Source: Nitrospirota bacterium (GTDB lineage: Bacteria; Nitrospirota; UBA9217). From it: a DNA stretch of 64,000 nt. The notes below the pieces were generated by a model. It saw only the letters and a program-made list of their open reading frames with translations, did no database searches and was not told the origin of the DNA. Where the stretch lies: NCBI GenBank assembly GCA_963818475.1, contig CAWFSF010000006.1, positions 2,290,907 to 2,354,906 of the forward strand, written 5' to 3'. The position numbers and the translations under genes are program-made. Positions 2,453 through 22,254 of this stretch are shown one piece after another (the first letter of the stretch is position 1; each line of letters begins with the position of its first letter).

Positions 2453-2630
2453 GCCTGCAGTATACCATTGAGAAAGGAAGAGCGTGTATGAGGAAAATCA
2501 TAAAAAGCAAAAAGCGCGGCATGTTATGCTGTGGGAAGGAGCGACAGATGGCGGAAATGGCGGATCGGCGCTTTGCATACCTTGTTCTGCCTGAAGGCTG
2601 CGACCTGCCTCCCGGACACGTGCTTCGGTC

Positions 2631-3554: not shown

Positions 3555-3604
3555 AAGATGAAGTATAGCGGATTGGCTGGCAGTTTGTCGCCGGTGTCCA
3601 AAAG

Positions 3605-5064
3605 CTAAGCAAGCCAAACCGGCGATCGAGGCCTTGGCGAAATCGAGCAGCTGAGCCGGCAATACGCCGATGTAGATGACGAAGGACGCTGAAATTGCCA
3701 GCGCCAGCGCCAGCGACGGGGCCCGGGAGATCTCGAATGACCCGACGGGGTCCTTCATATACATGACCATGATAACGCGCAGATAGAAATAGGCGCTGAT
3801 CGATGAAAGCAGGACGCCGACAACGGCAAGCCAGACAAGGCCCGCTTGTACGGCTGACTGGAAGATATAGAACTTGCCGACAAAACCGGCTGTCGGCGGT
3901 ATGCCCGTGAGCGAGAACATGAAGATCAGCATGAGGAAGGCTGCGGTCTTGTTGGTCTTGCCCAGGCCGGCAAAGTCCGCGATGTCCTCGCCCCGCTCCC
4001 CCGCCTTGCGCAGCATGATCACCACGCCGAAGGCCCCCATGTTCATGAGCGCGTAAATGCAGACGTAGAGCATGACGCTCGCGGCACCGTCGGGACCGCC
4101 GGCAGCCAGGCCGACGAGTGCATAACCCGCATGGGCAATGGAGGAATAGGCGAGCATGCGTTTGATGTTCGTCTGCGACAAGGCCATGATGTTGCCCGAC
4201 AGCCATGGTCAGCACGGCCAGACCCGCCAGGATCGCGGTCGATTGTTCATGGAGCGGCTGGAGCGCATACAGGAAGACCCTGAGCAGCACGGCAAAACCG
4301 GCGACCTTGGGACCGGCGGACATGAACGCCGTGACCGACGTCGGCGCCCCTTCGTATACGTCCGGCACCCACATATGGAATGGCGCTGCAGCCACCTTGA
4401 ATCCGAAGCTCACGACCAGCATGATCATGGACAGCATCAGGACCGGGTTCGTCAGGTCAGCCTTCTGGAGGAACAGCAGGATGCCGGCCAGGTTCGTGGT
4501 GCCCGTGATTCCGTACATCAGCGACATGCCGTACAGCATGATCCCCGACGAGAAGGCGCCCAGGAGCAGATACTTGATAGCCGCTTCATTGGAACGGTTG
4601 CTGCCCCGCATGAAGCCGGCGAGGACATAGATCGAAAGGGCCATGAGCTCGAGTCCGAGGTACAGCGTGATAAGGTCCCCGGCCGAGGCCATGAGCATCA
4701 TGCCGCACGTGGAAAAGAGCATCAGTGCGTAATACTCGCCGCGGTGGATATCCTCTTCTTTAAGGTAATTGATCGAGACGAGGATGCCCAGGCCGCAGGC
4801 GCTGTAAAAAACGAACTTGAAATACGTCGAGAACGGATCGATGAGGAACGTTCCCGAGAACACAGAGCCGGAGGCGCCGATCGCTCCATAGCTCGCCACG
4901 GCGGCAAATGACACGCAGCCGAGACTGAACCATCCGAGGTATCCTTTATATTTCTTGTCCGTGAAAAAATCGAGGATCAACACCAGCAGGCCGCCGGCAA
5001 TGATAATGATCTCCGGTGCAAGGGACGTCATGGATTGTGCTATTTCCTGGATCGAGCTGGACAT
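3605..5064 (-). CDS. nuoN: NADH-quinone oxidoreductase subunit N (frameshift near 4190; end approximate)
   Basis: LYLGLELMAL, EAAIKY, FKVAAAPFHMWVPDVYEGAP and KRMLAYSSIAHAGY across two frames. Confidence 0.92.
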
Positions 5065-5109
5065 CGATATCTCCTCACAGATTCCACTGGAATAAAACTC
5101 CTGACAAAA

Positions 5110-6650
5110 CTACTTCGCGAGCAGGGAACCCACCGCTTGGGCCATGGCAGGAACGTGCTGGACTTTGGCGTTCACCTGCTGAATAAGATTGGATGCGGAC
5201 ATATGGATCATCTGGAGCGCCGCATTCGGATAGAGGCCGATGAAGAAGACCAGTATCACCAGCGGCAACGATGCGGCGATCTCCCGCAGGTTCATATCAA
5301 CAAGATGTTCGTTATGCGGGATTCGTGATCTTGCCGAAGGCCACACGCTGATAGAGCCAGAGCATGTATCCCGCGCCGAGAATGATCCCGAGCGAGGCGA
5401 TCACGGCATAGGGCTTATAGTGCATGAACGCGCCGAGCAGGATGGCAAACTCGCCGATGAAGCCGTTCGTGCCCGGCAAGCCGATGGACGAAAAGGTGAT
5501 GATCATCAGGAACGTGGCATAGATCGGGACCCTGGCTGCGATGCCGCCGTAGTCGGCGATCACCCGCGTATGGGTCCGTTCGTATATCACACCCACGGCA
5601 AGGAACAACGCTCCCGTCGAGATGCCGTGGTTCAGCATCTGCAGGATCCCGCCCTCAAGCCCCTGGCTGTTCAGGGCAAAGATGCCGAGGGTGACAAAAC
5701 CCATATGGCTGACGCTCGAGTAGGCAATCAGTTTCTTGAAGTCCGTCTGCGCAAAGGCCATGTAGGCCCCGTAGATGATCGCGATCACCGAAAGGATCAT
5801 GATGGCCGGGGTCCAGGCTGAGCGCGGCGTCAGGGAAGAACGGCAGCGAGAACCGGAGGAAGCCGTAGGCGCCCATCTTGATCAGGATGCCGGCCAGGAT
5901 GATGCTGCCTGCAGTGGGCGCTTCCACGTGTGCGTCGGGCAGCCAGGTGTGGACCGGGAACATCGGCACCTTGACCGCAAAGGCCGCGAAAAAGGCAATG
6001 AAAGCAAATATCTGGAACGTATAGGTGAACTGGTGGTTCATGATGGCCAGCACATCGAAGGTCTTACCCGCGGCAACGTAAATGGCCATGATGGCGACGA
6101 GCATGAGCACGCTGCCCACGAGAGTGTAGAGAAAGAACTTGATGGCAGCGTAAAGCCGGTTCGGTCCTCCCCAGATGCCGATCAGCAGGTACATGGGGAT
6201 GAGCATGGCTTCCCAGAAGATATAGAACAGGAAAAGGTCAAGCGAGGTAAAGACGCCGATCATAGCCGCTTCAAGGAACAGGATGGCAATCATGAACTCC
6301 CGCACCCGGTCCTGAATGGCGGTCCAGGACACCATGATCGAGATGACCGTCAGGAGGGCTGTCAGCGCCACAAAGAGGATGCTGATGCCGTCAACGCCGA
6401 GCTTGTAGCTGATGCCCCAGGCGGCGATCCAGGGCAGGTTCTCGCCGAACTGCATGTTCGCGGTCGTCGTGTCAAAATTCGTGAGCAGCGGCAGACAGAG
6501 CGCAAGATCGATGACCGCGACGCTTACGGCGATCCAGCGTACTGCCGCGGCGTTCCTGACGAACAGCAGGATGAACGAACCGATCACGGGAATGAAGATC
6601 AGGAGGCTCAACAGCGGGTATCCGAGCTGGTTCGGGATCAATTCAAGCAT
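5110..6650 (-). CDS. nuoM: NADH-quinone oxidoreductase subunit M (two frameshifts)
   Basis: FYIFWEAMLIP, FAVKVPMFPVHTWLPDAHVEAP, KKLIAYSSVSHMG, LPGTNGFIGE. Confidence 0.92.
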
Positions 6651-6730
6651 GGATCTGACTCCTTTGGCAAATGGATACTGATGTCAACGCAAACCACGAG
6701 GCATCTGTTTCAATGATAAGCTGCGCCCTG

Positions 6731-8663
6731 CTAACGCAGAACGTAGTACAATCCCACGAGGACCACCAGGCCAAGCGCCATGGTAAATGCATACTGCTGC
6801 ACATAGCCGGTCTGGATCTTCCGGCTTTGCTGGCTCGTCGAACTGATCGCCTGCGCAAGGCCGTTCACTGCACCGTCGATGATTTTGACATCGCCGATCG
6901 TATAGAGAATCTTCGCCAGTTTGTGAACCAGGCCGTCAACAAAAATGTAGTTGTAGATTTCGTCAACCTTATATTTATTAAGGAGCAGCGTGTAAGCACC
7001 CTTGTACTTCTCCGCCCAGTAGGCGGGCCGGGAAGGGTTCTTTACATACCATGCATAGGCGCTTCTGATCCCGGCAAGCGCGACCACGACGGAAAACACC
7101 ATCAGGCCAAGCTCGAACCAGTGGCTTTCTGCCGCAGCTGCATGCTCAGCATGCGGAAAGAGCGGTGCGAGAAAATCGCCAAACAGGTTCATGTGAGGAA
7201 TGATCGCCCCGGGCATCCCGATCCAGCCGATGACCACGGAGAAAAACGCAAGGATCATGAGCGGGACGGTCATGACCTTCGGCGACTCGTGCACATGGTG
7301 CTCGACCTCGTGGTCCATGCGGGATTTTCCGTAGAAGGTCAGGTAGATCAGCCGGAATGAATAGAATGCCGTCATGAAGGCGGCGGCCACGCCGAGGACC
7401 CACAGCCCGCGGCCCAGCGTCGATGCATTGTAAGCGCTCCAGAGGATCTCGTCCTTGCTGAAAAAGCCCGCAAAGGGAAAGATCCCGGCCAGGGCAAGAG
7501 AGCCGATGATGAACACCGCATGGGTGATCTTGATCTTGGACTTGAGCGCGCCCATCTTGCGCATATCCTGCTCGCCCGACAGTGCATGGATCACGCTGCC
7601 CGAGGCAAGGAACAGGAGCCCCTTGAAGAACGCATGGGTCGTGAGGTGAAAGATGCCTGCCGAGAACGCCCCGACCCCGAGCCCCAGGAACATATAGCCG
7701 AGCTGACTGATCGTTGAATAGGCGATGACGCGCTTGATGTCATTCTGCACCAGGCCGATGGTCGCGGCAAAGACCGCGGTCAGCCCGCCGACGATGGCAA
7801 CGACATTCATCGCGGTCGGAGAGAGCGAGAAGATCGGCGCACAGCGCGCCACCATGAAGACGCCGGCGGTGACCATGGTCGCCGCATGGATCAGGGCGCT
7901 GACCGGCGTGGGGCCTTCCATGGCGTCCGGGAGCCAGACGTAGAGCGGAAGCTGGGCGGACTTGCCCATGGCTCCCACGAACAATAGCAGCGCGATCAGG
8001 GTAATCACACTGATCTCTGACCCGAAGAGCAGGTAGTTGAAATTGGCGGCCGGATCGGCAACGGCCTTGAAGACCTCGGCGAAAGTTCAGTGTGCCGAAG
8101 GTGACAAAGATCAGGAGCATGCCGAGCAGGAAGCCGAAGTCGCCTACGCGGTTCACGACAAAGGCCTTGATGCCGGCATCGGAGGCTGATTTTTTCTCAT
8201 ACCAGAAGCCGATCAGGAGGTAGGAGCAGAGGCCGACCCCTTCCCAGCCCACGAACATGAGCAGGAAGCTGTTGGCCATGACCAGCACCAGCATGAAGAA
8301 GGTAAAGAGCGCCAAATAGGAGAAGAACCGGGCAAAACCTTTGTCGCCGTGCATATATCCCACGGAGTAGATGTGAATAAGGGAACTGAGCGTGGTCACG
8401 ACCAGGAGCATGACCGTGGTCAACTGGTCGATCTGCAGCCCCACATTCACCGAGAGCGTACCGATGGAGATCCAGGAATAGAGGTTCTCATTGATGATCG
8501 TCCCGCCGAGCACATCGAAGAAGGCGCTCACGGAAAGCACGAACGCCCCGACCACGCCGAGAATGGGGAAGTAGGCGGCCCTCTCCTTCAGGAATTTCCC
8601 GAACAGACCGGCGATCAGGAAGCCGGCGAAGGGCAGCAGCGGTATCAGTGCATATTTAAGCAT
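6731..8663 (-). CDS. nuoL: NADH-quinone oxidoreductase subunit L (frameshift near 8080)
   Basis: GWEGVGLCSYLLIGF, GKSAQLPLYVWLPDAMEGPTP, C-terminal QTGYVQQY. Confidence 0.93.
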
Positions 8664-8679
8664 AATCACCTCTTCGAGG

Positions 8680-8808
8680 TAAATTCCAAACTTCAATTTC
8701 CAAATCTCAAATAAAATCCAAATTTCAAATTCGAATCATAGAACATTTGCCTCTTGGTACTTGGAATTTATTTGTAATTTGGCGCTTGGGCTTTGGGATT
8801 TCCCGATT
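8680..8808. repeat. Intergenic palindromic array of AT-rich heptamers (nuoK-nuoL)
   Basis: Left arm AATTCCA/AATCTCA/AATTTCA units; right arm TTGGAATTT/TTTGGGATTT units. Confidence 0.7.
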
Positions 8809-9111
8809 TTATCCCTTCATGATGTTAAAGTCTTCCACGTGGATACTCCCGCGGTTGCGGGCCAGGAGGATGATGATCGCCAGAGCCACCGCTGCCTCGG
8901 CAGCGGCCACGGTGATGACAAAGATCACGAAGATCTGGCCGGTGAGCGACTGCAGATAGTGCGAGAATGCGACCAGGTTGATGTTCGCCGCATTCAGCAT
9001 GAGCTCGATGGACATCAGGACGATGAACACATTGCGGCGGCTCAGCACGCCGACAACACCGATGGTGAACAACCCGGCACTCAGCAGGATATACCAGGAC
9101 AAGGGGATCAT
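8809..9111 (-). CDS. nuoK: NADH-quinone oxidoreductase subunit K
   Basis: [26 protein letters not shown]; 100 aa. Confidence 0.95.
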
Positions 9112-9139
9112 GGAAACCTCCGGTTTCCATTGCGGAGGA

Positions 9140-9201
9140 AGATTGCAGAATTTGGATTGAGATTCAGCAAAAGCCGCAATCCGAAATCCGAAATCCGCAA
9201 T
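9140..9201. repeat. Intergenic palindromic heptamer array (nuoJ-nuoK)
   Basis: GATTGCAGAATTTGGATTGAGATT ... CCGCAATCCGAAATCCGAAATCCGCAAT. Confidence 0.7.
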
Positions 9202-9209
9202 GTACTTAT

Positions 9210-9720
9210 CTATTCATTCGTTTTCTTCTTCGCCAGCATTACAGCACCCACGAGCCCGACCAGCAGGATGATGGACGCGATCTCGAACGGCACCAGGTAG
9301 TTGGTATACAGTTCAATGCCGAGGGCACCAACCCCGGTACTCGAGACATCGCGCATCGGTTGGCCCGCGTCTGCCGGAAATCTGCCCTTAATGACAAGCA
9401 ATCCGATCTCACCGGCGATCAGCACGCCAAAACCGACGAGCCAGGGCCAGAAACGGTTTGCCCGCAGCGCGGTAGACCTCGCGGTCCACGCTCAGGAGCA
9501 TGGCCACGAAGAGGTACAGGATCAGGATGGCCCCGGCATACACGATAAGCTGCACCGCAGCCAGGAACTCCGCGTTCAGCAACACGAATACGCCTGCAAT
9601 ATGAAAGAAGAGCAGGAGCATGAACATCACGCTATGGATGGGGTTCTTCCGGGTGACCGTGAGGACCGCCGATACGAGGATCACTGCGGCAAAATACAGG
9701 AAGATAAGTTTATGCGCCAT
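9210..9720 (-). CDS. nuoJ: NADH-quinone oxidoreductase subunit J (frameshifted)
   Basis: [38 protein letters not shown]. Confidence 0.9.
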
Positions 9721-10207
9721 TACTTCTTTACCGCCTTTCCGCCCATGTAGTGGTCGCCCACATCGACAAGACGGTCCTTGGTATAGAACGCATCTTTCCG
9801 GTCATAGCAGGCAAGCTCGAACTCGGGGGTCATCAGGATCGCCGAAACAGGGCACGCATCGATGCAGAAACCGCAGAACACGCACCGGAGCAGGTCAAGT
9901 TCGTAGGAGTTCACCACTTTTTCGATGGTCTGGCCCTTCGGACGTCACCACCGTAATGGCCTTGGAAGGACAGACCGCCTCGCAGAGACCGCAGCCGATG
10001 CACGCCGCTGCGCCCTTTTCATCGCGGCGCATGGCATGGAGCCCGCGCGAACCCGGGGATGGGTTTGCGCTTGAAGGCCGGGTACTGCCGCGTCCTCGCA
10101 TAGGGTATCATACGTTTTTGACGGGTGAGCATGGTCTTGAGCGTCAGGGCCATGCCCTGTGCGATCTCGATCATGAAGATCGTTTTGAGCAGCTTTTTAT
10201 TTTTCAT
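9720..10207 (-). CDS. nuoI: NADH-quinone oxidoreductase subunit I (frameshifted)
   Basis: [12 protein letters not shown] and [12 protein letters not shown] in successive frames. Confidence 0.9.
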
Positions 10208-10248
10208 GTCATTTACTCCTCACTCCGCCCTCGCTCAAACCTCTCCGT

Positions 10249-11336
10249 CTACAGCCAGCCCAGCTGCTTCATACCTGCCGCCACGAGCAGCGTGCAGAGC
10301 GACAAGGGGAGAAAAATCTTCCAGGAAATCTTCATGAGCTGGTCATAACGGTACCGGGGAAGCGTTGCCCGGATCCACATGTAGAAAAAGATGAAGAAGT
10401 ACAGCTTTGCCAGCAGCCAGAGCGTCGGGGGCAGGGCCGCGAACATCCGGTTGATGAATGCTATTGAGGTGAGATGGCCAAACGCGGTGTTGGGAAGAAT
10501 CTGCACCGGCAGCCAGCCGCCGAGGAACATGATGCTCGCCAGGAGCGAGACCACCATCATGTTCATGTACTCTGCCATGAAGAAGAGGCCGAAGCGAATG
10601 CCGCTGTACTCGGTGAAGTATCCCGCCACGAGCTCGCTCTCTGCCTCGGGCAGGTCGAAAGGAACACGGTTCGTCTCTGCAATGGCCGAAACCAGATAGA
10701 GGAAAAATGCCACCGGGCCCACGGGCAGCGCGATAATGAACCATTGCTTGCTCTGGGCATTCACAATATCGTTCAGGTTCAGCGAGCCGGCCAGGAGCAC
10801 CACGGTGAGGATCGCAAAGGCCATGGGGATCTCGTAGCTGATCATCTGGGCTGCGGACCGGAACCCTCCCATGAGGGAATACTTGTTGTTCGACGCCCAG
10901 CCGGCCATGATGACGCCGTAGGTGCCGATGCTGGCGAACGCGACGATAAAAAGAACACCTACGTTCAGGTTCGACACCCAGAGCGGGACCGTATGGGACA
11001 GCAGACCGAAAAAGTCGTGGGCGGTCCAAAGGGTATGACCACAAAGGCGCCAAACGCCATGACGAGCATGAGGATCGGCGCAATGCTGAAGACCCATTTG
11101 TCGGCCTTGGCCGGGATGATGTCCTCTTTCATGATGAACTTGACCGCATCGGCGATCGGCTGCAGGATCCCGTGCCAGCCGGTCCGCATCGGGCCCAGGC
11201 GCCCCTGCATATGCGCAAGCACCTTGCGCTCCATGAGCTGCAGATACATCGCATTGGCCAGGATGAAAGCCAGCAGCACCACAATGGGAATGACGAGCGT
11301 ATAGAGGATGTTGAGTACCAGGTTCAGATCAGGCAT
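10249..11336 (-). CDS. nuoH: NADH-quinone oxidoreductase subunit H (frameshift near 11000)
   Basis: ERKVLAHMQGRLGP, QPIADAVK, AETNRVPFDLPEAESELVAG, RYDQLM. Confidence 0.95.
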
Positions 11337-11345
11337 GTTCTGCTC

Positions 11346-13521
11346 CTACACTTCGATCTTAATGTGTTTAATGGTCCCGATTTCATGTGACCGCGTGATC
11401 GTCATCCCGGACGAGAACAATTGCTTCTCGGCCGTGATCACTTCCTTCTTCATGATCGTAGCGGATGCCAGCGACAGGTCAACATCCGTTCCGGCAAGGG
11501 GCGACTTGTTCACGCGGCCAGCACGCACCAACGGCAAGACCGGCATACAGCGGTACCGTGGACCGGATCTCCGCAATGATGTCCCGCACGGATCCATAGG
11601 TCAGGGACCCGCCCATCTTCTTCGCAATCTCCGCGAGGATCTCCCAGTCAGGACGCGATTCCCCGTAGGGCTCTTCAGCGCGGTTGATCTGCTGGAGGCG
11701 GCGCTCAAGGTTCGTGAACGTTCCGCTCTTTTCCACATAGCTTGCCGCCGGCAGCACCACATCGGCCATCTGCGCCGTCTCGGTCATAAAAATGTCCTGC
11801 ACCACGAGGAAATCGAGCTTCGCAAGCACCGGTTTGAGGCCCGGGTCGCTTCCGATCGGATCGTCGCCCATGATATAGAGGGCATGCAGTTTGCCGGAGG
11901 CCATCGCGTCGACCATCTCCACAGCGTTTTTGCCGGCCGTCTCGGGCAGGACCGCGTTCCAGGAACCGGCAAGCGAGGCCGTCGTATCAGCACTGACCTT
12001 CCGGTATCCGGGATAATAATCCGGAAGCACTCCCATATCGAGCGCACCCTGGAAGTTGCTGCGCCGTACGATGGGATAATAGGTAACATTCTTCAGAAGA
12101 CCGGCAAGCTCCTTGATCCGGCTGAAATCCGCGTCCGTGAGCTTCGACGGTACGATGACCGCCACGCTTCCGGCACCTTTCAGGACCGCTGCAGCATGCT
12201 GTGCCTCGCTGCTGCCCTGTCCGGCAGACAACGCCCTGACCAGGTCGCCCAGCGCCGCCTCGGTGCTTTGGGGGATCACGACCGAAGCAAGCTTGTTGAA
12301 TTTATTAATTCCGTCGTTCACCAGGACCAGCGTGCGGCCTTTTCGATTGACGGCGCGGACGATCTCAATGCCGGTGAGCGGGTTGATATCGCCGACTTCC
12401 TTGTCGAGCACCAGGATAACATCGTTAGTGCCCATCTGGCCGAGTTCACCGCTGAAGAACGCCGTATCGAGTCCTTTCGGCGCCTTGAGCCTCGCCAGCA
12501 GATCCACATTGTTCGTGCCCACGATCGTGCGCATGAACTTCTGGAACACATAATGGTCCTCGTTCGTGGTCCGGACGGACCCGAGACCGCCGATGCTGTC
12601 AGCCCCGCTCTTGCCCTTGATCACGTTGAGGTTCGTGGCCACCACTGCCAGCGCCTCTTCCCAGGTGCAGTCAACGAGCTCATTGCCCACGCGCATCTTC
12701 GGCGTAGTGAGCCGGTCTTTGTGATGGACCGCGTCCCAGCCGAACCGCCCCTTGGCGCAGAGATAATTGTCCTTCCCCGGGCTCACCCGCATGATCCTGC
12801 TGTCGCGGGTCTCAAGCGTGGTGGTGCAGCCGCAGCCGCAGTAGTTGCAGACGGATTTCGTCCCCTCCAGGTTCCAGGACCGGGCCTTATACTTGAACTG
12901 GCGCGTCGTGAGCGCTCCCACCGGGCAGATCTCGACGCATTCGCCGCAGAACTCGCAGTCCAGCGGCCGGTCGAAATCGGTGCTGATCCGCGCCTTGGTG
13001 CCGCGGCGGGTGAATGCCCACTCGCCTACGCCGTTCTGTTCATCGCAGATCCTGACGCATTTGCCGCAAAGGATGCAGCGGCTGATATTGCGTTCGACGA
13101 TCGGGCTCTCCAGATCAGGCGGGAGGTAGCCCTTTTCAGCATCGAACCTGCTCTGGCCGAGTCCGTACTCATGCACGAGGTCCTGGAGCTGGCACTCGCC
13201 CGCCTTGTCGCAGACCGGACAGTCGAGGGGATGCTTGATCAGCAGGAGTTCGAGCACCATCTTGCGCGCATTGATGAGCTCGGGCGACGTGGTGCGGACC
13301 ACCATGTTGTCGCCGGCCGGCGTGGTGCACGACGGCGTGAACCGGCGCGGCGTTCCCTCCACCTCCACGATGCAGATCCGGCAGGCGCCGAAGGGATGGA
13401 GCTTGTTGTCATGGCACAGGGTGGGCACCCGCGACCCGGCCGCATTAGCAGCCTCGAGGATGGTCGATCCCATGGGCACTTCTACTTTTTTTCCGTCAAC
13501 CGTTACTGTTATTTTTTGCAT
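11346..13521 (-). CDS. nuoG: NuoG/BfuA-like multi-Fe-S subunit with a degenerate molybdopterin-oxidoreductase domain (C-terminal frameshift)
   Basis: [2Fe-2S] CH...GACRIC...C, HPLDCPVCDKAGEC, CILCGKCVRIC, CEFCGECVEICP, CNYCGCGC; the FDH metal-ligand position reads NNVDLLARLKAP (no Cys/Sec). Confidence 0.8.
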
Positions 13522-13578: not shown

Positions 13579-15387
13579 CTAATCGATCGACCAGAACCGG
13601 CACGCCTTGATGCAGGATTTGCACTTGGTGCACTTTTCAGGATCGATGTATGCAACCTGGCCTTTTTCCCACTTGAGCGCGCCGGTCGGGCAGGCCTTGA
13701 AGCACTGGCCGCACTTCTTGCATTTTGACTGATCTACCACAAACTTGACGAGCGGCGTGCAGACCCTGGCCGGGCAGCGATGCTCCTTGATATGCGCCTC
13801 GTACTCGTCGCGGAAATACTTGATCGTGGTAAGCACGGGGTTGGGCGAGGTCTGACCGAGACCGCACAGCGAGGTGTCCTTGATCTGCTGGGAAAGATCG
13901 AGCAGCAGTTCGATATCGCCTTCACGACCCTCGCCGTTCGTAATGCGCTGCAGAATGGTGAGCAGCGTTTTGTTCCCGATCCGGCAGGGCACGCACTTGC
14001 CGCAGGACTCGTCCTCGGTGAACTCAAGGAAGAACTTGGCCATGGCCGGCATACAGGTGGTCTCGTCCATCACCACCATGCCGCCTGAGCCCATGATCGC
14101 ACCGGTCTTGTTGATATTCTCGAAGTCCACGGGCGTATCGATGAGCGAACCGGGTATGCAGCCTCCCGACGGGCCGCCCATCTGCACTGCCTTGAACTTG
14201 CGGTTGTTCTTGATACCGCCGCCGATATCATAAATGATGGTCTTGAGCGGCGTGCCCATGGGCACTTCGACAAGCCCGATATTGTTCAAGGCTCCGGAGA
14301 GCGCGAACACCTTGGTGCCTTTGCTCTTCTCGGTCCCCAGGCTCGCGAACCAGTCCGCTCCGTGCAGAATGATCGGCGGTATGTTCGCAAAGGTCTCGAC
14401 GTTGTTCAACACCGATGGGCGCTGCCACAAGCCTTTGACGGCCGGGAACGGCGGCTTGGCCCGCGGCATGCCGCGCTTGCCTTCGATCGACGCCATGAGC
14501 GCCGTTTCTTCTCCGCAGACAAAAGCGCCGGCGCCCTGGTAGATCTCAATATCGAGGTCGAAACCCGTGCCGAGGATGTCCTTACCCAAGAGGCCGTGGT
14601 CCTTGGCCGATTCGATGGCAAGTTGGAGCCGTTGCACTGCCAAGGGATATTCAGCCCTTACATAGATGTACCCGTAATGGGCGTTGATCGCCTTCGCGGC
14701 AATGATCATGCCTTCGAGCACGGAGTGGGGGTCCGCCTCCATGACGCTGCGGTCCATGAACGCGCCCGGGTCACCCTCGTCTCCGTTGCACAGAATGTAC
14801 TTGATATCACCCGAAACACGGGCGCAAAGCTCCCATTTGAGGCCCGTCAAAAAGCCGGCTCCGCCCCTGCCGCGAAGTCCCGATTTCTTCATTTCGACGA
14901 CGATCTGCTCCGGCGTCATTTCCGTGAGCGCCTTGGCCGCAGCCATGTAGCCGTCGCGGGCGATGTATTCCTCGATCTTCTCGGCGTCGATGAGGCTCCG
15001 GTTCCTGAGCGCCCGGAGAACCTGGTGCTTGAAGAAGGGGATCTCGTTCATCACCGGGATCGTGTTCTTTTCCGCCGGCGGCGTGTACAGGAACTTCTGG
15101 ACCGGCCGGCCCTTGATGAAATGCTCCTCCACGAGATGCGGCACATCCTCGGGCTTCACCAGCTGATAGAAGATGTCCTCGGGGTAGACCACCATCACCG
15201 GGCCCTTGGCGCAGAACCCGTTGCACCCGGTCAGCACGATCTTGACCTCCTTCTGGAGGTTACGCTTGATGAGTTCGGTCTCGAGCGCGTCCTTGACCTT
15301 AAGGGATCCGTTTGCAACGCAGCCGGTGCCTGCGCAGATCATTATGTTCGAACGGTATGCAGTCGTTTCCACGATATTACCCCGCAC
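13579..15387 (-). CDS. nuoF: HydB/HndC/BfuB-type FMN/NADH-binding subunit (extended NuoF)
   Basis: N-terminal CAGTGC...GCNGFC, GRGGAGF, NGDEGDPGAFMDR, GAFVCGEET, GGPSGGC, SCGKCVPCRIG, C-terminal 2x[4Fe-4S]. Confidence 0.9.
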   Translation of the reverse strand: MRGNIVETTAYRSNIMICAGTGCVANGSLKVKDALETELIKRNLQKEVKIVLTGCNGFCAKGPVMVVYPEDIFYQLVKPEDVPHLVEEHFIKGRPVQKFLYTPPAEKNTIPVMNEIPFFKHQVLRALRNRSLIDAEKIEEYIARDGYMAAAKALTEMTPEQIVVEMKKSGLRGRGGAGFLTGLKWELCARVSGDIKYILCNGDEGDPGAFMDRSVMEADPHSVLEGMIIAAKAINAHYGYIYVRAEYPLAVQRLQLAIESAKDHGLLGKDILGTGFDLDIEIYQGAGAFVCGEETALMASIEGKRGMPRAKPPFPAVKGLWQRPSVLNNVETFANIPPIILHGADWFASLGTEKSKGTKVFALSGALNNIGLVEVPMGTPLKTIIYDIGGGIKNNRKFKAVQMGGPSGGCIPGSLIDTPVDFENINKTGAIMGSGGMVVMDETTCMPAMAKFFLEFTEDESCGKCVPCRIGNKTLLTILQRITNGEGREGDIELLLDLSQQIKDTSLCGLGQTSPNPVLTTIKYFRDEYEAHIKEHRCPARVCTPLVKFVVDQSKCKKCGQCFKACPTGALKWEKGQVAYIDPEKCTKCKSCIKACRFWSID

Positions 15388-15451: not shown

Positions 15452-15829
15452 CTAATAGGTCGTTTCGTGCCCGGCAACCAGGGCGTATTCTTTGACCGGC
15501 CGGCCCGCAACGACATGCTCGGCGAAGATCTTGCGCATCTTTTCTTCCGTCAGAGCAGTATATTTTATCGGCGGCTCCCCGGTGGTCTCGATGGTGGTCA
15601 TCGGTTCCTGGCTGCACAGGCCCGCGCAGCCCGAGGTCGTGATCGCCACGTCCTTCAGATTGGACTTGGCAAGCTCTTCCATGATGGTGTTCATGATGCC
15701 CCGGGCGCCCGCAGCAATCCCGCAGGTCCCCATATGCACCGTGATCTTGACCCTGAACCCACCCTCGCGAAGCCCTTGATGGTAGTCTTCCTTGATCTTT
15801 TTTAAATCAGCGATCGTCAGCTTTGCCAT
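15452..15829 (-). CDS. HndB-like thioredoxin-fold [2Fe-2S] ferredoxin subunit
   Basis: VHMGTCGIAAGA and GCAGLCSQEP motifs. Confidence 0.85.
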   Translation of the reverse strand: MAKLTIADLKKIKEDYHQGLREGGFRVKITVHMGTCGIAAGARGIMNTIMEELAKSNLKDVAITTSGCAGLCSQEPMTTIETTGEPPIKYTALTEEKMRKIFAEHVVAGRPVKEYALVAGHETTY

Positions 15830-15932: not shown

Positions 15933-16442
15933 CTAGTCGTATTTCTTAATAATGTCCATTACCTTCGTGGCCGCCACATCGCCGTAGGTGTCCTGCCCGA
16001 TGACCACAACCGGTGCGAGGCCGCATGCGCCGAGGCACCGCACTGCCTCGAGGGAATACTTCTTGTCCCGGGTGATCTCGCCGACTTCGAGGTCCAGTTC
16101 AGCCTTGATCTTTTCGATGATCTCCTCGCTTCGTTTCACGTAGCAGGCGGTCCCGAGGCAGACCCGGATCACGTGCTTGCCGCGCGGGACCAGGGTGAAG
16201 TAGGAATAGAAGGTGGCCACGCCGAAGACCACGCTGGGAGACATGTTCATGCCTTTCGCGATATAGCGCTGCACGATATGCGGGAGATACCCGCAGATCT
16301 CCTGCGCCTGCTGCAGTACGGGAATCAGCGAACCGGGCTTGTCCTTGTACTTTTCAATGATCACGTCGATCTTCCGGTACATCTCGGGCAAGATGACCTC
16401 ATTGTTTGTGGCAGTATGTTCTGCTGCTTCTGTACTCATCAT
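15933..16442 (-). CDS. nuoE: NuoE/HndA [2Fe-2S] subunit
   Basis: GVATFYSYF, CLGTAC and CLGACGLAP. Confidence 0.9.
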   Translation of the reverse strand: MMSTEAAEHTATNNEVILPEMYRKIDVIIEKYKDKPGSLIPVLQQAQEICGYLPHIVQRYIAKGMNMSPSVVFGVATFYSYFTLVPRGKHVIRVCLGTACYVKRSEEIIEKIKAELDLEVGEITRDKKYSLEAVRCLGACGLAPVVVIGQDTYGDVAATKVMDIIKKYD

Positions 16443-16475: not shown

Positions 16476-17006
16476 TCAGATCCTCATACCGTGCTGCAGC
16501 ATGCCCCTGAGTGCTTCGAATACCGCCGGGCTGTTGATCGGCACATCGTCGAGCTCGTTCTTTATCTCCCGGGTGTCAAGCCGGAAGACCTCACCGTCCA
16601 CGCGTTCTTCGTAGACCATATCCAGCTCAGGATGGCCCGCAATGATCGTCAGCAGGGTATCTGCCATGGCGCCCATCTTGGGCCGGTCAATGTTGCTCCA
16701 CTGGAACGTGACCGTTACCCGGGTGCCGCTGTTCGGCGCTGAGTCGATCGTCAGGCCGCCGCCTGCCTGCTCCGCTGCCTGGGCCAGAAGCGGAATTCCG
16801 AGACCTGTTTTCTTATGTTTCGTCGAAAAAAAAGGGTTCCGGACCCTTGCCAGCGTCTCGGCATCCATCCCTCTTCCGTTATCAATCACCAGTATCTGCA
16901 GAAGGTCCTGAGCACTGTCCCTGTTGGCCAGTATTTCAATTCTTGTCGCGCCAGCCCGAAGCGAGTTCTCTGCAATATCGAGGATATGGAGCGAAATTTC
17001 TTCCAT
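16476..17006 (-). CDS. Stand-alone HATPase_c (histidine-kinase-like ATP-binding) protein
   Basis: MEEISLHILDIAENS (N box), DNGRGM, NPFFSTK, GLGIP; no DHp/His domain. Confidence 0.8.
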   Translation of the reverse strand: MEEISLHILDIAENSLRAGATRIEILANRDSAQDLLQILVIDNGRGMDAETLARVRNPFFSTKHKKTGLGIPLLAQAAEQAGGGLTIDSAPNSGTRVTVTFQWSNIDRPKMGAMADTLLTIIAGHPELDMVYEERVDGEVFRLDTREIKNELDDVPINSPAVFEALRGMLQHGMRI

Positions 17007-17010
17007 TACC

Positions 17011-17757
17011 TCAGTACTCAGCCTTCCTGCCATCTTTTCCGGCAAGGGCCTTTTTGATCTCGGCAACCGTGCCCTCTTCCAGCAAAAAGGATGTAAACCG
17101 CTTCCCCATATCTGCAGGGCTGTGAGCATCCGAACTCGTGACCATTGGATACTTCGCGCAATCAGGGAATCGTTTTCGAGCCTCGACAATGTTCGAGTTT
17201 GCCGATACCTCCACCGCATCCAGAACCAGCGTATCAGGGATGAACCCAAGCTGTCCGATAATGCTGAAGGATTCCCGGTCAACATGAGCAGCTATTACAA
17301 GGCTGTCACCCTTTGCCGCCCGGGCTTTAGCAACGATCGCTTCTGCGGGCAGCGATGTAGCTCCGATCAGAAGCCGCTCACAAAAGCCGGTTACTCCATC
17401 CTCGTCGTCAGCGATCACCTGCAGTCCAAAGGAGTGACCGTCATTTTTTCCGGCAAGGTGTTGGTAAACAAACTTCTGGAAATCCAGGAGATCGTCGTCA
17501 TCATCAAAGAACACCAGGATGTGCGCTTCCTCGGAAGAAGTGACTTCCATCCCGCCGAGAACAATCAACCCGTTGCGGAGCCCGGCTTTTTTCACGGCAA
17601 TGACGTTTTCAGCCGAGTTATGGTCACACACACCGATCAGGTCGATCCCCTTCTCGATGGCAGCGCTCACGACCTCCCTCGGTGACATGTCAAGACCGGA
17701 GCAGGGAGACAGGCAGGTGTGTACATGAAGATCGGCCTTAAAGCGCCTCAGCGCCAC
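17011..17757 (-). CDS. PHP-domain phosphoesterase
   Basis: DLHVHTCLSPC, DHNS, AHVDR, SSDAH. Confidence 0.85.
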   Translation of the reverse strand: MALRRFKADLHVHTCLSPCSGLDMSPREVVSAAIEKGIDLIGVCDHNSAENVIAVKKAGLRNGLIVLGGMEVTSSEEAHILVFFDDDDDLLDFQKFVYQHLAGKNDGHSFGLQVIADDEDGVTGFCERLLIGATSLPAEAIVAKARAAKGDSLVIAAHVDRESFSIIGQLGFIPDTLVLDAVEVSANSNIVEARKRFPDCAKYPMVTSSDAHSPADMGKRFTSFLLEEGTVAEIKKALAGKDGRKAEY

Positions 17758-18088
17758 GGATACCTGCCTTATACAATCTGCCCACCAGTTCGAACGCCGA
17801 AAGGTTGCTCACCATGATCGGAATGCCTTCTACCTCGGCCTTGGCGATCGTATCCTGGTCCGGGACCCTGCCCTGTATCAGAATGATGCCCGACAGCCCC
17901 GTATGTGCTGCCACGGCCACAATGTTGTGGTGGATATGGAGCGTGACCCATAGGTTCCCGTCCTCGGCGTGGGCCAGGACGTCCGACAGGAGGTCGCTCA
18001 CGTACCCGCCGGTCACCTCGTTATCAAGATGCCCTGCGCCGGTTTTGACGGTCAAGCCGAACTCCGCTACCAGGTCACGTAGTTTCAT
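17738..18088 (-). CDS. DRTGG-domain protein
   Basis: VTGGYVSDLLSDVL, LWVT, IVAVA; ~116 aa. Confidence 0.8.
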   Translation of the reverse strand: MKLRDLVAEFGLTVKTGAGHLDNEVTGGYVSDLLSDVLAHAEDGNLWVTLHIHHNIVAVAAHTGLSGIILIQGRVPDQDTIAKAEVEGIPIMVSNLSAFELVGRLYKAGIRGAEAL

Positions 18089-18098
18089 TGGTCTCCGG

Positions 18099-19055
18099 TC
18101 AACTCGTATAATAGAACTGCATGGTCAGATGAGTTCCCTCGGGCACCGATGATACGAGGTTCATCTCATCGGCGCATTTTTTCATGTTCGCCAGCCCCAT
18201 GCCGGCGCCGAACCCTAATTCCCGCACCCAGTCCGGCGCTGTGGAAAAACCGGGCTGCAATGCTTTTTCGACATCGGGTATTCCGGGCCCGGTGTCGATC
18301 GCCTCCACCGTAACCCCCCACTTTTCCACCTGGGCACGGATCACACCGCCCTTGGTATATGAAGCGAGATTTATCTCTGCTTCGTACGTGGCAACCCCGA
18401 TCCTCCTGAGGAGAGGCGGGCAGACACCCAGTTTTTTGAGAGCATTCTTGAGTTCGCTCGCCGCCTTACCGGCGTCCTTCAGTGTCTGACCAATAATATT
18501 GTATTTAAATGTGAAGCTGATTTCGTCCGCAGTCACATCCTCAAAGAACTTCCGCATGGTCGGACGCTGACGCGTCAGGGCAGCCTTTGATTCCGACTGC
18601 TCGTATTCGACCTCAAGTTTCTTCAACAGGCCTTCGACAATACTCCCCTTCGTGACGATGCCGACCAGCTCATTGTCCCGGTTCAAAACGGGGTACCGCC
18701 GGTAACCGAATTTGGAGAACTTTGCTATGCAGTGAACAAGCAATTCATCAGCATAGAGACACTCAACCTTTGTTTTCATTCTCTCCCGGATGGGAGCATT
18801 GATCGCGTTGTCGGTCAGTGCGTTGATCAGATCTTCTATGCTGATCATGCCGACGAGCTTTCCATTCTCCACAACCGGTGTGCCGGACAGCCGGTTGTCA
18901 CGCAAGAGGATCCTGAGCTCCGACATGGTCTGCTCAGGCCCTACGGTGACCATCGTCGGGGGCATGACCTCGCCGACGGTAAGCTCGTAGACCATCTCCT
19001 GGGTCTTGGTCAACCGGTCCAGTGTTCCCTGATCTTTACCTTGCGATGCAATCAC
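18099..19055 (-). CDS. CBS-pair plus RsbT-like anti-sigma/Ser-Thr kinase (HATPase) fusion
   Basis: Two N-terminal CBS repeats (SGTPVVENGKLVGMIS; RRYPVLNRDNELVGIVT); C-terminal YEAEIN, DTGPGIPD, GFSTA, GAGMGL. Confidence 0.82.
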   Translation of the reverse strand: MIASQGKDQGTLDRLTKTQEMVYELTVGEVMPPTMVTVGPEQTMSELRILLRDNRLSGTPVVENGKLVGMISIEDLINALTDNAINAPIRERMKTKVECLYADELLVHCIAKFSKFGYRRYPVLNRDNELVGIVTKGSIVEGLLKKLEVEYEQSESKAALTRQRPTMRKFFEDVTADEISFTFKYNIIGQTLKDAGKAASELKNALKKLGVCPPLLRRIGVATYEAEINLASYTKGGVIRAQVEKWGVTVEAIDTGPGIPDVEKALQPGFSTAPDWVRELGFGAGMGLANMKKCADEMNLVSSVPEGTHLTMQFYYTS

Positions 19056-19056
19056 G

Positions 19057-19431
19057 TTATTGCCGTTCGTCTACCCCTCTGAGCCCGCTCGTGTACAAGA
19101 TGCCGCAGGCCTCGAACATGGACAACCTCGTAATGAAGAGAGGAATCTCTTTTTGCTTTGCCAGTGCCACGGTTTCCGCTTCAGGTCGCTTCCCGCGCAC
19201 TACACAAACCGCTTTGATATCGGCGATATCAGCGGTCCGTACTGCCTGGGGGTTCGTGATCCCCGTGATCAGAATGCCATTCGCGTGCATACGACCGAGC
19301 ACATCGCTCATAAGATCGGCGCTGAAACAGCTATCCACTTCAATTTCGCTTATAAGGCCGCTCCCGGCAAGGACCTCAGCGTTCAAAAGCGTGACGATCT
19401 CTTTCAAATTCATGCCGCGTTCCTCAGCCAC
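19057..19431 (-). CDS. DRTGG-domain protein
   Basis: SADLMSDVL, LITGITNPQAVRTA, VRGKRP. Confidence 0.8.
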   Translation of the reverse strand: MAEERGMNLKEIVTLLNAEVLAGSGLISEIEVDSCFSADLMSDVLGRMHANGILITGITNPQAVRTADIADIKAVCVVRGKRPEAETVALAKQKEIPLFITRLSMFEACGILYTSGLRGVDERQ

Positions 19432-20631
19432 TTACCGGTCAACCTCACCCAGCACGATGTCGATGGTCCCGATGCATGAGATAACATCGGCCACCATATG
19501 GCCGGTCACCATCTTCGAAAGGGCGCTCACGTGCACATACGAGGGGGCGCGGATCTTGATGCGGTAGGGCCGGCCGCTGCCGTCGCTTACTATATAGAAC
19601 CCGAGTTCGCCCTTCGGCGCCTCGGTCGCCACGTAGACCTCGCCCTTGGGCATGGGGACCCACTTGCTCATGAGCACGAACTGGTGGGCCAGCGATTCCA
19701 TGTTTTTCATGACGTTCATTTTCTCGGGAATGGCGTACCGCGGGTCCGGGGTCACCACCGGACCGGGCGGCATCATATCGAGGCACTGTTTGATGATCCG
19801 GTTGCTCTGGCGCATCTCATTGATGCGCACGATGTACCGGTCGTAGACATCGCCGTTCTTTCCGAGCGGCACGTCGAAATCAACCTTATCGTAGGCCGCA
19901 TAGGGTTCGACCTTGCGCAGATCGTAGTTCACGCCGGAACCGCGGAGCGTACCGCCCGTCAGGCCGTAGTTGACCGCATCCTTGGCCGAGAACACGCCAA
20001 TGCCCACGGTGCGCTGGAGCCAGATGCGATTTTGCCGGATCAGCGTATCGTACTCTTCAAGCCGTTTGGGGAAGATCTCGGTGAATTCACGGCACTTATC
20101 AATGAAATCACGCGGTATATCGTTGCGTACGCCGCCGATGCGAACATAGCTCACGGTCTGGCGTGCTCCCGTCACCATCTCGGTAAGGTCGAGGATAAGC
20201 TCCCGTTCCCGCAGCGTATACATGCAGACCGTCATGGCACCGATGTCAAGGGCATGGGTGCCAAGCCACACCAGATGGCCCGAAAGCCGCGTCAGCTCCG
20301 CCATCAGCGTTCTGATGAACTGCGCCCGCTCCGGGACCTCGATGTTGGCAAGCTTCTCGACGGCAACCACGTACCCGAGGTTATTGTTCATGCAGGTGAT
20401 ATATTCCAGCCGGTCAGTCATGGGGATGATCTGATGGTAGGTCCTGCTCTCCATCCACTTTTCGATCCCGCGGTGGAGATACCCGGGGCGGGCGTCGCAG
20501 CCTACCACGGTCTCGCCCTGCAGGTCGAGCACCAGGCGCAGCACGCCGTGGGTGGCCGGATGCTGCGGCCCCATGTTGAGCGTTATTTCTTTCTGGACTA
20601 TTTCTTTTTCTGTCGTCTCTGTCGCTGACAT
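19432..20631 (-). CDS. nuoD: NADH-quinone oxidoreductase subunit D
   Basis: NMGPQHPATHGVLRL, GYLHRGIEK, EAPKGELG, DIVLGEVDR; no NiFe CxxC pairs. Confidence 0.95.
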   Translation of the reverse strand: MSATETTEKEIVQKEITLNMGPQHPATHGVLRLVLDLQGETVVGCDARPGYLHRGIEKWMESRTYHQIIPMTDRLEYITCMNNNLGYVVAVEKLANIEVPERAQFIRTLMAELTRLSGHLVWLGTHALDIGAMTVCMYTLRERELILDLTEMVTGARQTVSYVRIGGVRNDIPRDFIDKCREFTEIFPKRLEEYDTLIRQNRIWLQRTVGIGVFSAKDAVNYGLTGGTLRGSGVNYDLRKVEPYAAYDKVDFDVPLGKNGDVYDRYIVRINEMRQSNRIIKQCLDMMPPGPVVTPDPRYAIPEKMNVMKNMESLAHQFVLMSKWVPMPKGEVYVATEAPKGELGFYIVSDGSGRPYRIKIRAPSYVHVSALSKMVTGHMVADVISCIGTIDIVLGEVDR

Positions 20632-20647
20632 AGTGTCACCATCTGAT

Positions 20648-20780
20648 AAAATTCCAATTTTCAAATCCCAAATCTCAAATACTATCCAAATTTAAAATTC
20701 CAATTTTCAAAGTGTTTGTATTTTGATGCTTGCAATTTGGAATGTATTTGTCATTTGGTGCTTGAAGTTTGGTGCTTGTC
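20648..20780. repeat. Intergenic palindromic AT-rich heptamer array (nuoC-nuoD)
   Basis: AATTCCAATTTTCAAATCCCAAATCTCAAAT ... ATTTGGAATGTATTTGTCATTTGGTGCTTG; resembles the 8680-8808 element. Confidence 0.72.
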
Positions 20781-20784
20781 GTTA

Positions 20785-21255
20785 TCAGTATCCTTTCAGC
20801 GGATATTCCTTCCGGAGCGGATGCCCTTCCCAGTCCTCGGGCAGCAGGATCCGGCGAAGGTCGGGATGGCCGTCGAACTTGATCCCCATGAGATCGAAGG
20901 TCTCGCGTTCGTGCCAGTTGGCTGTTTGCCAGACCGACGACACCGTGTCGATCCGCGGGTCCTCTTCCGGCACACGCACCTTCAAACGGATGCGGTGGCG
21001 GTACTCGATAGAGATAAGGTTATAAACGACTTCGAAGCGGAGACCGGTGTCACCCGGATAGGTCGAGTAATCGACGGCCGTCAGGTCGGCCAAGTGGTCC
21101 ATCTGGAGGGAGGGTTCATCTTTGAGGTACAGACAGATGTCCCGGATCCTGTCTTTTTTGACCATGATCGAGACCTGACCTGCAAAGGTCGTCGTATCCA
21201 GGACCTGACCGGCGAATTTTTCTTCTACCATCTTAGCGATCTGTAAGGGATCCAT
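20785..21255 (-). CDS. nuoC: NADH-quinone oxidoreductase subunit C
   Basis: ANWHERETFDLMGIKFDGHPDLRRIL, GHPLRKEYP. Confidence 0.95.
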   Translation of the reverse strand: MDPLQIAKMVEEKFAGQVLDTTTFAGQVSIMVKKDRIRDICLYLKDEPSLQMDHLADLTAVDYSTYPGDTGLRFEVVYNLISIEYRHRIRLKVRVPEEDPRIDTVSSVWQTANWHERETFDLMGIKFDGHPDLRRILLPEDWEGHPLRKEYPLKGY

Positions 21256-21325
21256 ACAACCTCGTCACGGTCCGCACCGCGCAAAAGGTCCGCGGTGCTC
21301 GGTTTCGATCAGGATATTTGGTGTA

Positions 21326-21826
21326 TTACTTCCGGATATAGTGCTCTTTCTTGATCTTCTCTTGCAGTTTGATGATGCCGTTCATCAGGGCCTCAGGACG
21401 CGGCGGGCAGCCCGGTATGTAGACGTCAACGGGAATGATATTGTCAACGCCCTGCACCACGGCGTAGGTATTAAAGATGCCGCCGGAACCGGCGCAGCTT
21501 CCCATGGCGATGACATACCGCGGTTCGGGCATCTGGTCATAGACGCGGCGCACGATGGGTGCCATCTTTTTCGAAAGCGTACCGGCTACCAGGAGCAGGT
21601 CGGACTGCCGGGGAGACGGACGGGGTACGGTGCCGAAGCGGTCGAAGTCGTGCTGGGGAGCGGAATAATACTGGATCATTTCAATGGCGCAGCAGGCGAG
21701 GCCGAACGTCATGGGCCAGATGGAGCTTGCACGGCAGTAATTGAGAAAACCATCGACGGTGGTCGTGATATACCCGTCCTCAAAAAGATTCTGGACTACT
21801 CCCATTCGAGCGCCCCTTTCTTCCAC
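21326..21826 (-). CDS. nuoB: NADH-quinone oxidoreductase subunit B (start may be ~21805)
   Basis: [28 protein letters not shown]. Confidence 0.95.
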
Positions 21827-22170
21827 GCGTAGAAATACCCGACAAGCAGGATGATGATGAAGATCACCATCTCCACAAAGCCGTAGAGACCGATCTGGTT
21901 GTACGACACTGCCCAGGGATAGAGGAATACGGCTTCAATATCGAAGATAAGGAACAGCATGGCGATGATGTAGTAACGGATGGAGAACTTCTGATTGGCG
22001 TCCATGAAGGGAGTGATGCCGGACTCGTAGGTCAGCAGCTTTTCGGGATAGGGGTTCCGCGGACGGATGAACCATCCGGCAACCAGCATGCCGACGCCGA
22101 CAGCAGTACCGAGCAACAGGAATATTGCTACGGGCAAAAAGTGTTCTGGAAGATAGGTACTTGGTGTCAT
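21796..22170 (-). CDS. nuoA: NADH-quinone oxidoreductase subunit A
   Basis: [27 protein letters not shown]. Confidence 0.95.
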
Positions 22171-22225
22171 ACACTAAACTCCCTGCTATTAAATTTTAAA
22201 TTAACACAACTTCTGAAACTTGTGC

Positions 22226-22254
22226 ATAGTAAGCCAAGCAAAATATTTTGTCAA
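22226..22254 (-). promoter_or_regulatory. Sigma70-type promoter of the nuo operon
   Basis: Minus strand TTGACA-17 bp-TACTAT upstream of nuoA. Confidence 0.6.

Follow-up and report, generated by a model that had tools for sequence, protein, structure and literature searches.

The 64,000-nucleotide stretch of a Nitrospirota genome analysed in this study (the window; contig CAWFSF010000006.1, assembly GCA_963818475.1) carries a full nuoA-N operon on its minus strand. Within it lies a cassette of five intact genes in the order DRTGG-1, CBS-CBS-kinase, DRTGG-2, PHP phosphoesterase and GHKL ATPase (Table 1). The cassette is flanked by nuoD upstream and by an E/F/G block of the BfuC/D/B type downstream. 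From nuoD to the nuoE-like gene, the sequence gives successive spacings of 18, 1, 10, -20, 4 and 33 nucleotides; DRTGG-1 starts at an ATG with GAGGA ahead of it, and DRTGG-2 is its paralogue (29% identity). The initial annotation of the window had described just such a group of five tightly spaced or overlapping genes inside the nuo operon, and all five were found. It had placed them between nuoD and nuoE, which is correct for the position; the downstream gene is BfuC (HydC-type), not a canonical nuoE. Its observation that the operon contains no hydrogenase is borne out, and the [FeFe] H-cluster family PF02906 was not found in the genome of the window (G000; 91% complete).

The five cassette genes are free of frameshifts. 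Single-base frameshifts occur in the window's nuoG to nuoN (nuoG, H, I, J, L, M and N, window 2600-13500), are not shared by relatives and are likely errors of long-read assembly. The cassette is single-copy in the genome, and none of its genes has a DNA-binding domain detectable with Pfam. Chance insertion or misassembly is ruled out by the equal gene order after nuoD in 42 family loci. The nearest named relatives of the kinase are from 'Nitrospirae bacterium GWD2_57_9' (89%) and 'GWC2_56_14' (95%), both of which we take to be placed in GTDB class UBA9217. Passages of PMC10203281 describe this class as mostly subsurface sulfate reducers.

Table 1. Features of the window at and around the cassette (aa, amino acids).
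Feature	Position	Strand	Remarks
DRTGG-1	19057..19413	-	118 aa; Pfam DRTGG 28.8 bits, cut-off 25.2
CBS-CBS + SpoIIAB/RsbT-type GHKL kinase (HATPase_c_2)	18099..19055	-	318 aa; Pfam
DRTGG-2	17738..18088	-	116 aa; Pfam 19.9 bits, under cut-off (weak)
PHP-family metal-dependent phosphoesterase	17011..17757	-	248 aa; Pfam
Stand-alone GHKL ATPase (HydE-like, HATPase_c)	16476..17006	-	176 aa; Pfam
BfuC (HydC/NuoE-like 2Fe-2S subunit)	15933..16442	-	NCBIfam, Pfam
Stand-alone thioredoxin-like Fe-S protein (HydD/HndB-like)	15452..15829	-	125 aa, three Cys
BfuB (HydB-type flavoprotein)	13579..15387	-	602 aa; Pfam and B2 ligand spacing
NuoG/BfuA	11346..13521	-	frameshift near C-terminus in this assembly
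nuoH to nuoN	3600..11336	-	several assembly frameshifts; low end approximate
nuoA, nuoB, nuoC, nuoD	19432..22170	-	NCBIfam
AT-rich imperfect palindrome	22183..22205	-	approximate; between promoter and nuoA ribosome site
Sigma-70-type promoter TTGACA-17-TACTAT, before nuoA	22226..22254	-	top site of promoter scan

Conservation was followed in 301 Nitrospirota genomes of at least 80% completeness, 56 of which belong to the family of the window; the kinase is present in 85 of the former and 42 of the latter. Among 52 family loci mapped, the window included, 42 (from 41 genomes) have the cassette directly after nuoD in identical order, which confirms by neighbourhood survey that it is conserved in the nuo operons of relatives. 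All 37 of these loci that extend to BfuB show BfuC/D/B in the same order, the contigs of the other five stopping earlier. Six of the 52 have canonical nuoEF and neither cassette nor Bfu genes, two have a cyclic nucleotide monophosphate (cNMP)-binding gene and canonical nuoEF followed by cassette and BfuC/D/B, and two start within the cassette. Eight of the 14 kinase-less family genomes were examined: six are of the canonical type, and G015 and G202 have no detected orthologous nuoD. The window's NuoG is an orthologue of the protein encoded by the family's canonical operons (65-68% identity to the copies of L085 and L086), so the variable block is understood as the cassette plus BfuC/D/B between nuoF and nuoG. 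Across the family the five genes are intact at 57-98% identity, with catalytic residues retained.

The branching of operon types is based on a rapidly built tree of NuoC plus NuoD with 54 rows. In it, canonical operons nest among cassette-bearing ones, in a group of 99 support with L048, and the two operons with both inputs branch near the base. The canonical operon is not supported as the ancestral state by this nesting, which makes loss of the block at least as likely as gain; the branching would fit an ancestor with both inputs and subsequent losses, or re-acquisition. Loci L052 and L054 (genomes G009 and G025) each combine two alternative inputs, NuoEF and BfuC/D/B, with a single NuoG in one nuo operon. 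A stand-alone cNMP-binding gene is found between nuoD and nuoE in 8/8 loci with canonical nuoEF (for example L085:6264-6743, L086, L052:17146-17694 and L173-L176) and in 0/42 cassette-only loci; it seems that either input module comes with a nucleotide-sensing gene of its own.

The bfu genes occupy the middle of the host operon. BfuB comprises N-terminal 2Fe-2S, FMN, NADH-4Fe-4S, SLBB and C-terminal 2x4Fe-4S domains (Pfam), and its B2 cluster ligands C445/T483/H532/C538/C543 are all present, as assigned by spacing against residues given in PMC9304861. The histidine among them is described in passages of the same paper as missing from non-bifurcating homologues. Cassette-linked BfuB proteins have H-x5-C-x4-C in 35/37 cases and GDPGAFMDR, GAFVCGEE and GGPSG in 34/37, where canonical NuoF has GTFKDR/GAYICGEE. 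The complex of the window appears to be of the Nuo-Bfu type already predicted for Nitrospirae (PMC9304861), and electron bifurcation is likewise a prediction; the match to the published BfuB clade 39 is one of phylum, not of clade placement by tree. NuoG is only 36-42% identical to the 820-amino-acid partners in other Nitrospirota, and its role as an active formate dehydrogenase (Fdh) is ruled out by absence of the catalytic cysteine. The Fdh catalytic cysteine is absent from the one copy of the 820-amino-acid BfuA partner that was checked (L072).

The promoter before nuoA is likely to be the start of the whole operon, and TTGACA...TA(C/T)TAT recurs with equal spacing ahead of nuoA in those family loci that were compared. 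The palindrome that follows it (approximately ATT.AAAATTTAAT) is conserved in most family loci and is a possible operator of a regulator. Elsewhere in G000 there are a second nuo operon, two more Bfu-type loci and gene clusters that resemble group 4 hydrogenases or Mrp, among the regions C6:308-325 kb, C6:2064-2069 kb, C2:353-358 kb and C6:1692-1719 kb; group 4 [NiFe] enzymes are a possible source of the weak NuoD-like matches at C6:1.69-1.72 Mb.

Fusions of a CBS pair to the kinase occur widely outside the family, across phyla. A genome scan gave 596 candidates, and the best 80 of them represent loci from Chloroflexota, Spirochaetota, Planctomycetota, Cloacimonadota, Acidobacteriota, Thermodesulfobacteriota and others. 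With short contigs included in the gene counts, DRTGG-2 is present in 66, PHP in 65, DRTGG-1 in 60 and the ATPase in 48 of these 80 loci; the partners are BfuB (49), NiFe large subunit (18), Hdr-type (12), NuoD-like (5), HydA (4) and Rex (4). The Bfu modules that the cassette adjoins in other phyla belong to hydrogenases, to Hdr and to Fdh. Of the cassette genes the ATPase is the one most tightly tied to BfuB: in the 41 CBS loci well flanked by 5 kb on both sides, it is found in 27 of 30 with BfuB compared to 0 of 11 without. The cassette follows the Bfu input module, in family loci and in other phyla, and not complex I as such, which the initial annotation had proposed as the target. The CBS kinase described there is real and is not peculiar to this setting, being found across numerous phyla next to NiFe, Hdr, Fdh and FeFe enzymes.

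Various arrangements accompany the cassette elsewhere. In L096, L098, L103, L106, L108, L110 and L112-L114, a BfuA-like protein of about 1,080-1,100 amino acids with HdrA-like parts follows the CBS cassette, and HdrB/C, MvhD and NiFe genes are near. In the treponemes L146, L148, L152, L154, L155 and L171, the gene immediately ahead of the CBS kinase encodes a HAD hydrolase, and Bfu genes are not seen nearby. Other Nitrospirota families have a CBS-less cassette, often with Bfu genes, head to head with nuoABCD or nuoD (L065, L071, L073, L074). BfuC carries an N-terminal receiver-like fusion in L059:3353-4213, L072, L073, L074, L081, L083 and L084, and histidine kinases and response regulators surround the cassette in these loci. 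Within the window's own family, a single open frame spans RecR and a CBS-less cassette kinase in two genomes, G035 (L061:9065-10147, minus strand) and G028 (L060:19-1068, plus strand), and G035 has an [FeFe]-Bfu operon (BfuB-GltD-like fusion, HydA) with a permuted cassette between ybaB and recR.

As regards the five NuoD-like loci of the CBS set, one is the family itself, L107 is divergent, L162 resembles a group 4 hydrogenase, and L122 and L124 present a second arrangement in the order DRTGG-1, kinase, nuoA-D, DRTGG-2, PHP, ATPase, BfuC/D/B, NuoG. The run DRTGG-1, kinase, nuoA, nuoB, nuoC is found in 18/18 cases, comprising L124 and 17 close-kinase genomes among 30 relatives. Because kinase and NuoD of this second lineage branch apart from those of the window, the link to complex I must have arisen at least twice. 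The record of L122 is titled Actinomycetes; its nuo and cassette genes are near those of the Thermodesulfobacteriota locus L124 (79% in the kinase), and the label may be wrong. In a fast tree of 138 columns, the family kinase clusters with CBS kinases of other phyla and not with those of other Nitrospirota (96 support), hence the CBS form would be older than the Nuo-Bfu setting.

The cassette exists in alternative sensor versions. A metagenome scan with kinase-Fe-S fusions provided a sensor-type set (best 80 of 582), and since this and the CBS set were each selected for their own feature, only the zeros are informative: the Fe-S sensor is found in 79/80 sensor-type and 0/80 CBS loci, the CBS pair in 79/80 CBS and 0/80 sensor-type loci. 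The two versions are mutually exclusive in these 160 loci; a third version, with neither, is represented by 21 loci from the remaining Nitrospirota. Whereas the Fe-S sensor is encoded behind the kinase, the CBS pair is fused ahead of it, so that CBS takes over the sensor's role but not its place. The claim that CBS domains sit where a sensory hydrogenase usually does is correct to that extent, and the claimed kinship with the gene set of hydrogenase operons is evident from the same gene order in the 80 sensor-type loci. The kinase is found fused to CBS, to the Fe-S sensor and to DRTGG-1, the latter in P0235, P0238 and P0239 (Pfam) and in P0200, P0212, P0247 and P0260 (by sequence). Longer DRTGG-1 forms gave one match among 797 candidates, a tandem DRTGG fragment.

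Protein anatomy provides the basis for a functional proposal; in the residue counts, rows below 75% length or with stops were dropped, as was L093 as a near-duplicate. The cassette kinase has the N, G1 and G2 boxes and the catalytic glutamate of GHKL serine kinases, with E225, N229, D254, G256 and G258 kept in 133/133. Its nearest solved relative is SpoIIAB (profile E 1e-11), and the fold agrees (1TIL, template modelling (TM) score 0.81 by target). The earlier description as an RsbT-like kinase is supported at the level of the intact site, from which activity is predicted. In the first CBS pocket, S72, D75 (38/44) and R120 (42/44) are retained, with E74 beside the pocket; the second pocket is degenerate in the family, with S/N at position 138. 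The top CBS fold matches bind AMP, ADP or Ap4A. We take the pattern G-h-h-S/T-x-x-D with a basic phosphate contact to be the adenyl-nucleotide ribose pocket of a CBS pair, and the pair is likely to read adenine nucleotides.

Each DRTGG protein contains one invariant serine, Ser36 of DRTGG-1 (codon 19308-19306; 105/105) and Ser35 of DRTGG-2 (codon 17986-17984; 118/118); most other serines and threonines vary. The initial annotation had proposed the DRTGG serines as candidate acceptors, and this applies to the second serine of SADLMSDVL in DRTGG-1, the first being kept in just 38/105. In the independent sensor-type set the serines are present in 86/86 and 88/88 hidden Markov model matches, the two match lists overlapping. 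The DRTGG-1 model, with a predicted local distance difference test (pLDDT) score of 93.9, has the fold of 2IOJ/3L2B/1KO7 (DRTGG/HPrK-N) and places Ser36 near the start of a short helix; a STAS fold is found neither among its listed structure matches nor by Pfam. The conservation suggests a special role, with phospho-acceptor as the candidate. The PHP enzyme has a complete set of metal ligands (H11, H13, D45, H46, E71, H79, H158, D210, H212; 107-109/109), and the orphan ATPase keeps D10, N14, D42, G44, G68 and G70 in 92/92. In this ATPase Pfam recognizes HATPase_c alone, and no HisKA dimerisation domain with its phospho-histidine.

Cassette and Bfu module correspond in gene content, order and conservation, and they are gained and lost jointly. 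We see about an even chance that the cassette is a serine-phosphorylation switch tuning the BfuC/D/B input module of a predicted bifurcating complex I. To operate, such a switch would have the CBS pair bind adenine nucleotide and so set the activity of the fused SpoIIAB-type kinase, a role that elsewhere would fall to the Fe-S sensor protein or to no dedicated sensor. The kinase might then phosphorylate the invariant serine of DRTGG-1, DRTGG-2 or both, and the PHP enzyme would take the phosphate off again. In what is the weakest step of the proposal, the phosphorylation state of the DRTGG proteins could gate the HydE-like ATPase, which would act on BfuB/C/D post-translationally, in activity or assembly. 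The outcome would be a ferredoxin-plus-NADH input to proton-pumping quinone reduction that is matched to the energy state of the cell.

Several observations weigh against this proposal. Part of the cassette core occurs without BfuB in view in 11/41 well-flanked CBS loci, mostly from spirochaetes, and 8 of the 20 stretches fetched, out of 42 matches in Nitrospirota of other families, show no BfuB; the core without BfuB often sits among two-component genes. Conversely, neither the two other Bfu-type loci of G000 nor its second nuo operon has a cassette in cis. DRTGG domains are not known as kinase substrates. Thr49 is also nearly invariant in the DRTGG proteins (102/105 and 118/118), and an alignment of ambiguous register with 30 unrelated DRTGG domains gives Asp/Glu in 27 in one register and Ser in 22 in the adjacent one, so the serine may be a helix-cap residue. 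The nearest solved relatives of the PHP enzyme are the nuclease EndoQ and enzymes that act as nucleotide phosphoesterases, rather than protein phosphatases. In passages of PMC11172384, DRTGG is reported to matter hardly at all for regulation of CBS-pyrophosphatase, and the published Nuo-Bfu, as described in passages of PMC9304861, has 14 subunits and no cassette genes.

We favour post-translational control via the HydE-like ATPase, although only to the degree that it could equally prove right or wrong, because the cassette is single-copy and has no DNA-binding gene, and Rex and an H-cluster are not found. Behind it we place, in descending order, a transcriptional output, assembly, a nucleotide signal and a passenger role. 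It is rather unlikely that the switch acts on transcription, by way of a regulator encoded elsewhere (Rex, two-component or sigma-54) and in a feedback loop on the operon. Adjacency of rex to the cassette in 4/80 CBS loci would agree with it, as would the histidine kinases and response regulators flanking the cassette in other Nitrospirota, and in PMC3492117 transcriptional control is assumed in the passages concerned. For the family the Rex route is ruled out, Rex not being found in 54/54 genomes. When the sequence ahead of nuoA was scanned for a Rex box, the window had no match, and the matches in 5 relatives all carried 4 mismatches. Locally, ntrBC-like genes upstream of nuoA in the window and the conserved palindrome after the promoter might speak for a regulator; yet ntrBC is upstream in the canonical L086 as well, promoter, palindrome and ntrBC show no demonstrated cassette-dependent difference, and the cassette itself has no DNA-binding or sigma gene.

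The tight association of the ATPase with BfuB would be expected of an aid to Bfu maturation or assembly, with the GHKL ATPase chaperone-like, the DRTGG proteins as adaptors and phosphorylation minor or absent. Its ATPase has an N-box Asp where kinases carry Glu, and A. woodii HydE lies outside the active enzyme, possibly for assembly or signalling according to passages of PMC3315566, a description that also speaks for the favoured switch. We consider this improbable and rank it just after the transcriptional output: exchangeable sensor domains on the kinase together with a phosphoesterase indicate signalling, and cassette-less Bfu loci exist in the same genome. More improbable still is a system run on a small nucleotide such as pAp or Ap4A, hydrolysed by PHP and sensed by CBS and DRTGG as in CBS-pyrophosphatase. 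The relatives of PHP, the ligands of the CBS fold matches and the joining of CBS and DRTGG in that enzyme are in its favour, but DRTGG and PHP are retained where the CBS pair is lacking (80 sensor loci, 21 Nitrospirota loci), and the kinase site is intact. Grouping of the family kinase with CBS kinases of other phyla implies arrival as a block, and the cassette could on that account be a passenger of the Bfu genes with no role for this complex I. This is very hard to reconcile with the intact, conserved genes and catalytic residues in the family and with the second lineage, which retains kinase and DRTGG-1 directly before nuoA in all 18 close relatives.

Anaerobic energy metabolism depends centrally on Bfu enzymes; the gene set adjoining them has been listed for more than a decade without a test in the literature found. 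Because the locus described here has neither H2 sensor nor Rex, the cassette must function without them, and two confounders are gone. The family constitutes a natural series of canonical input, both inputs and Bfu input in an otherwise orthologous operon, and the question is narrowed to two named serines and a set of five proteins, all small and soluble. Should the switch prove real, DRTGG domains would gain a function and a bacterial complex I would gain a dedicated kinase control. It is conceivable, if doubtful, that the cassette embodies a bacterial switch of a new class, working by serine phosphorylation, with DRTGG acceptors, a PHP phosphatase and swappable CBS/Fe-S sensors in direct control of Bfu enzymes. 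Such a switch would be wired into complex I in two independent lineages, with energy charge switching a proton-pumping, ferredoxin-using complex.

Literature naming 'DRTGG' concerns, among the papers listed, pyrophosphatases, Pta, SpxR and others, and no study of the cassette was found in a search that leaves room for subscription papers, figures and most supplements to describe the gene set. What is new here is the CBS form combined with Nuo-Bfu and lacking H2 sensor and Rex, which we did not find in print; the ingredients are known or predicted. Nuo-Bfu itself is a predicted complex I with BfuABC input, assigned to clades 38 and 39, the latter of Planctomycetes and Nitrospirae (Schut et al. 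2022, PMC9304861, in part). The window operon agrees with it in that BfuC/BfuB/BfuA replace nuoEFG in mid-operon and BfuB has all clusters and the B2 histidine, and differs in holding five extra genes and a HydD-like gene. The word 'kinase' appears nowhere in that paper's text or supplement, nor does 'DRTGG' in its supplement, figures being outside the count. A gene set of the present kind lies upstream of bifurcating [FeFe] hydrogenases in Halanaerobium (Halsa_1862-1871, PMC4237134), with similar ones in the Cthe_0340-0342 region of C. thermocellum (PMC3492117) and at A. woodii hydE (PMC3315566); the passages concerned list the genes and report no test. There, too, a Ser/Thr kinase, PHP and a histidine-kinase-like ATPase stand beside HydC/D/B, in the order seen in the sensor-type loci. 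The window is distinct in having no H-cluster enzyme and no Fe-S sensor, in the CBS pair fused to the kinase, and in complex I as partner.

The HydS/HfsB-HfsC system (passages of PMC11837493) similarly places a sensor and a serine phosphatase-like gene beside hydrogenases, but its sensor has PAS, its phosphatase differs, and the window is devoid of such genes. With SpoIIAB/SpoIIAA/SpoIIE, RsbT/RsbS and RsbW/RsbV, the cassette shares kinase fold and catalytic residues, a phosphoesterase and small partners with a conserved serine, there being two GHKL proteins and two small partners. The partners are of the DRTGG/HPrK-N fold instead of STAS and the phosphoesterase is PHP instead of PP2C; a switched partner or sigma factor was not found in the operon (NCBIfam, Pfam), and in trans only Rex was sought. 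The partner-switching system of the initial annotation is thus retained in its SpoIIAB-like kinase site and not as a canonical partner switch. Closest in domain inventory is the CBS-DRTGG-CBS insert of CBS-pyrophosphatase (3L2B, 3L31), where a CBS pair and DRTGG occur together and adenine nucleotides regulate via CBS; in the cassette, CBS and DRTGG are on separate proteins tied to a kinase, and DRTGG persists where CBS does not.

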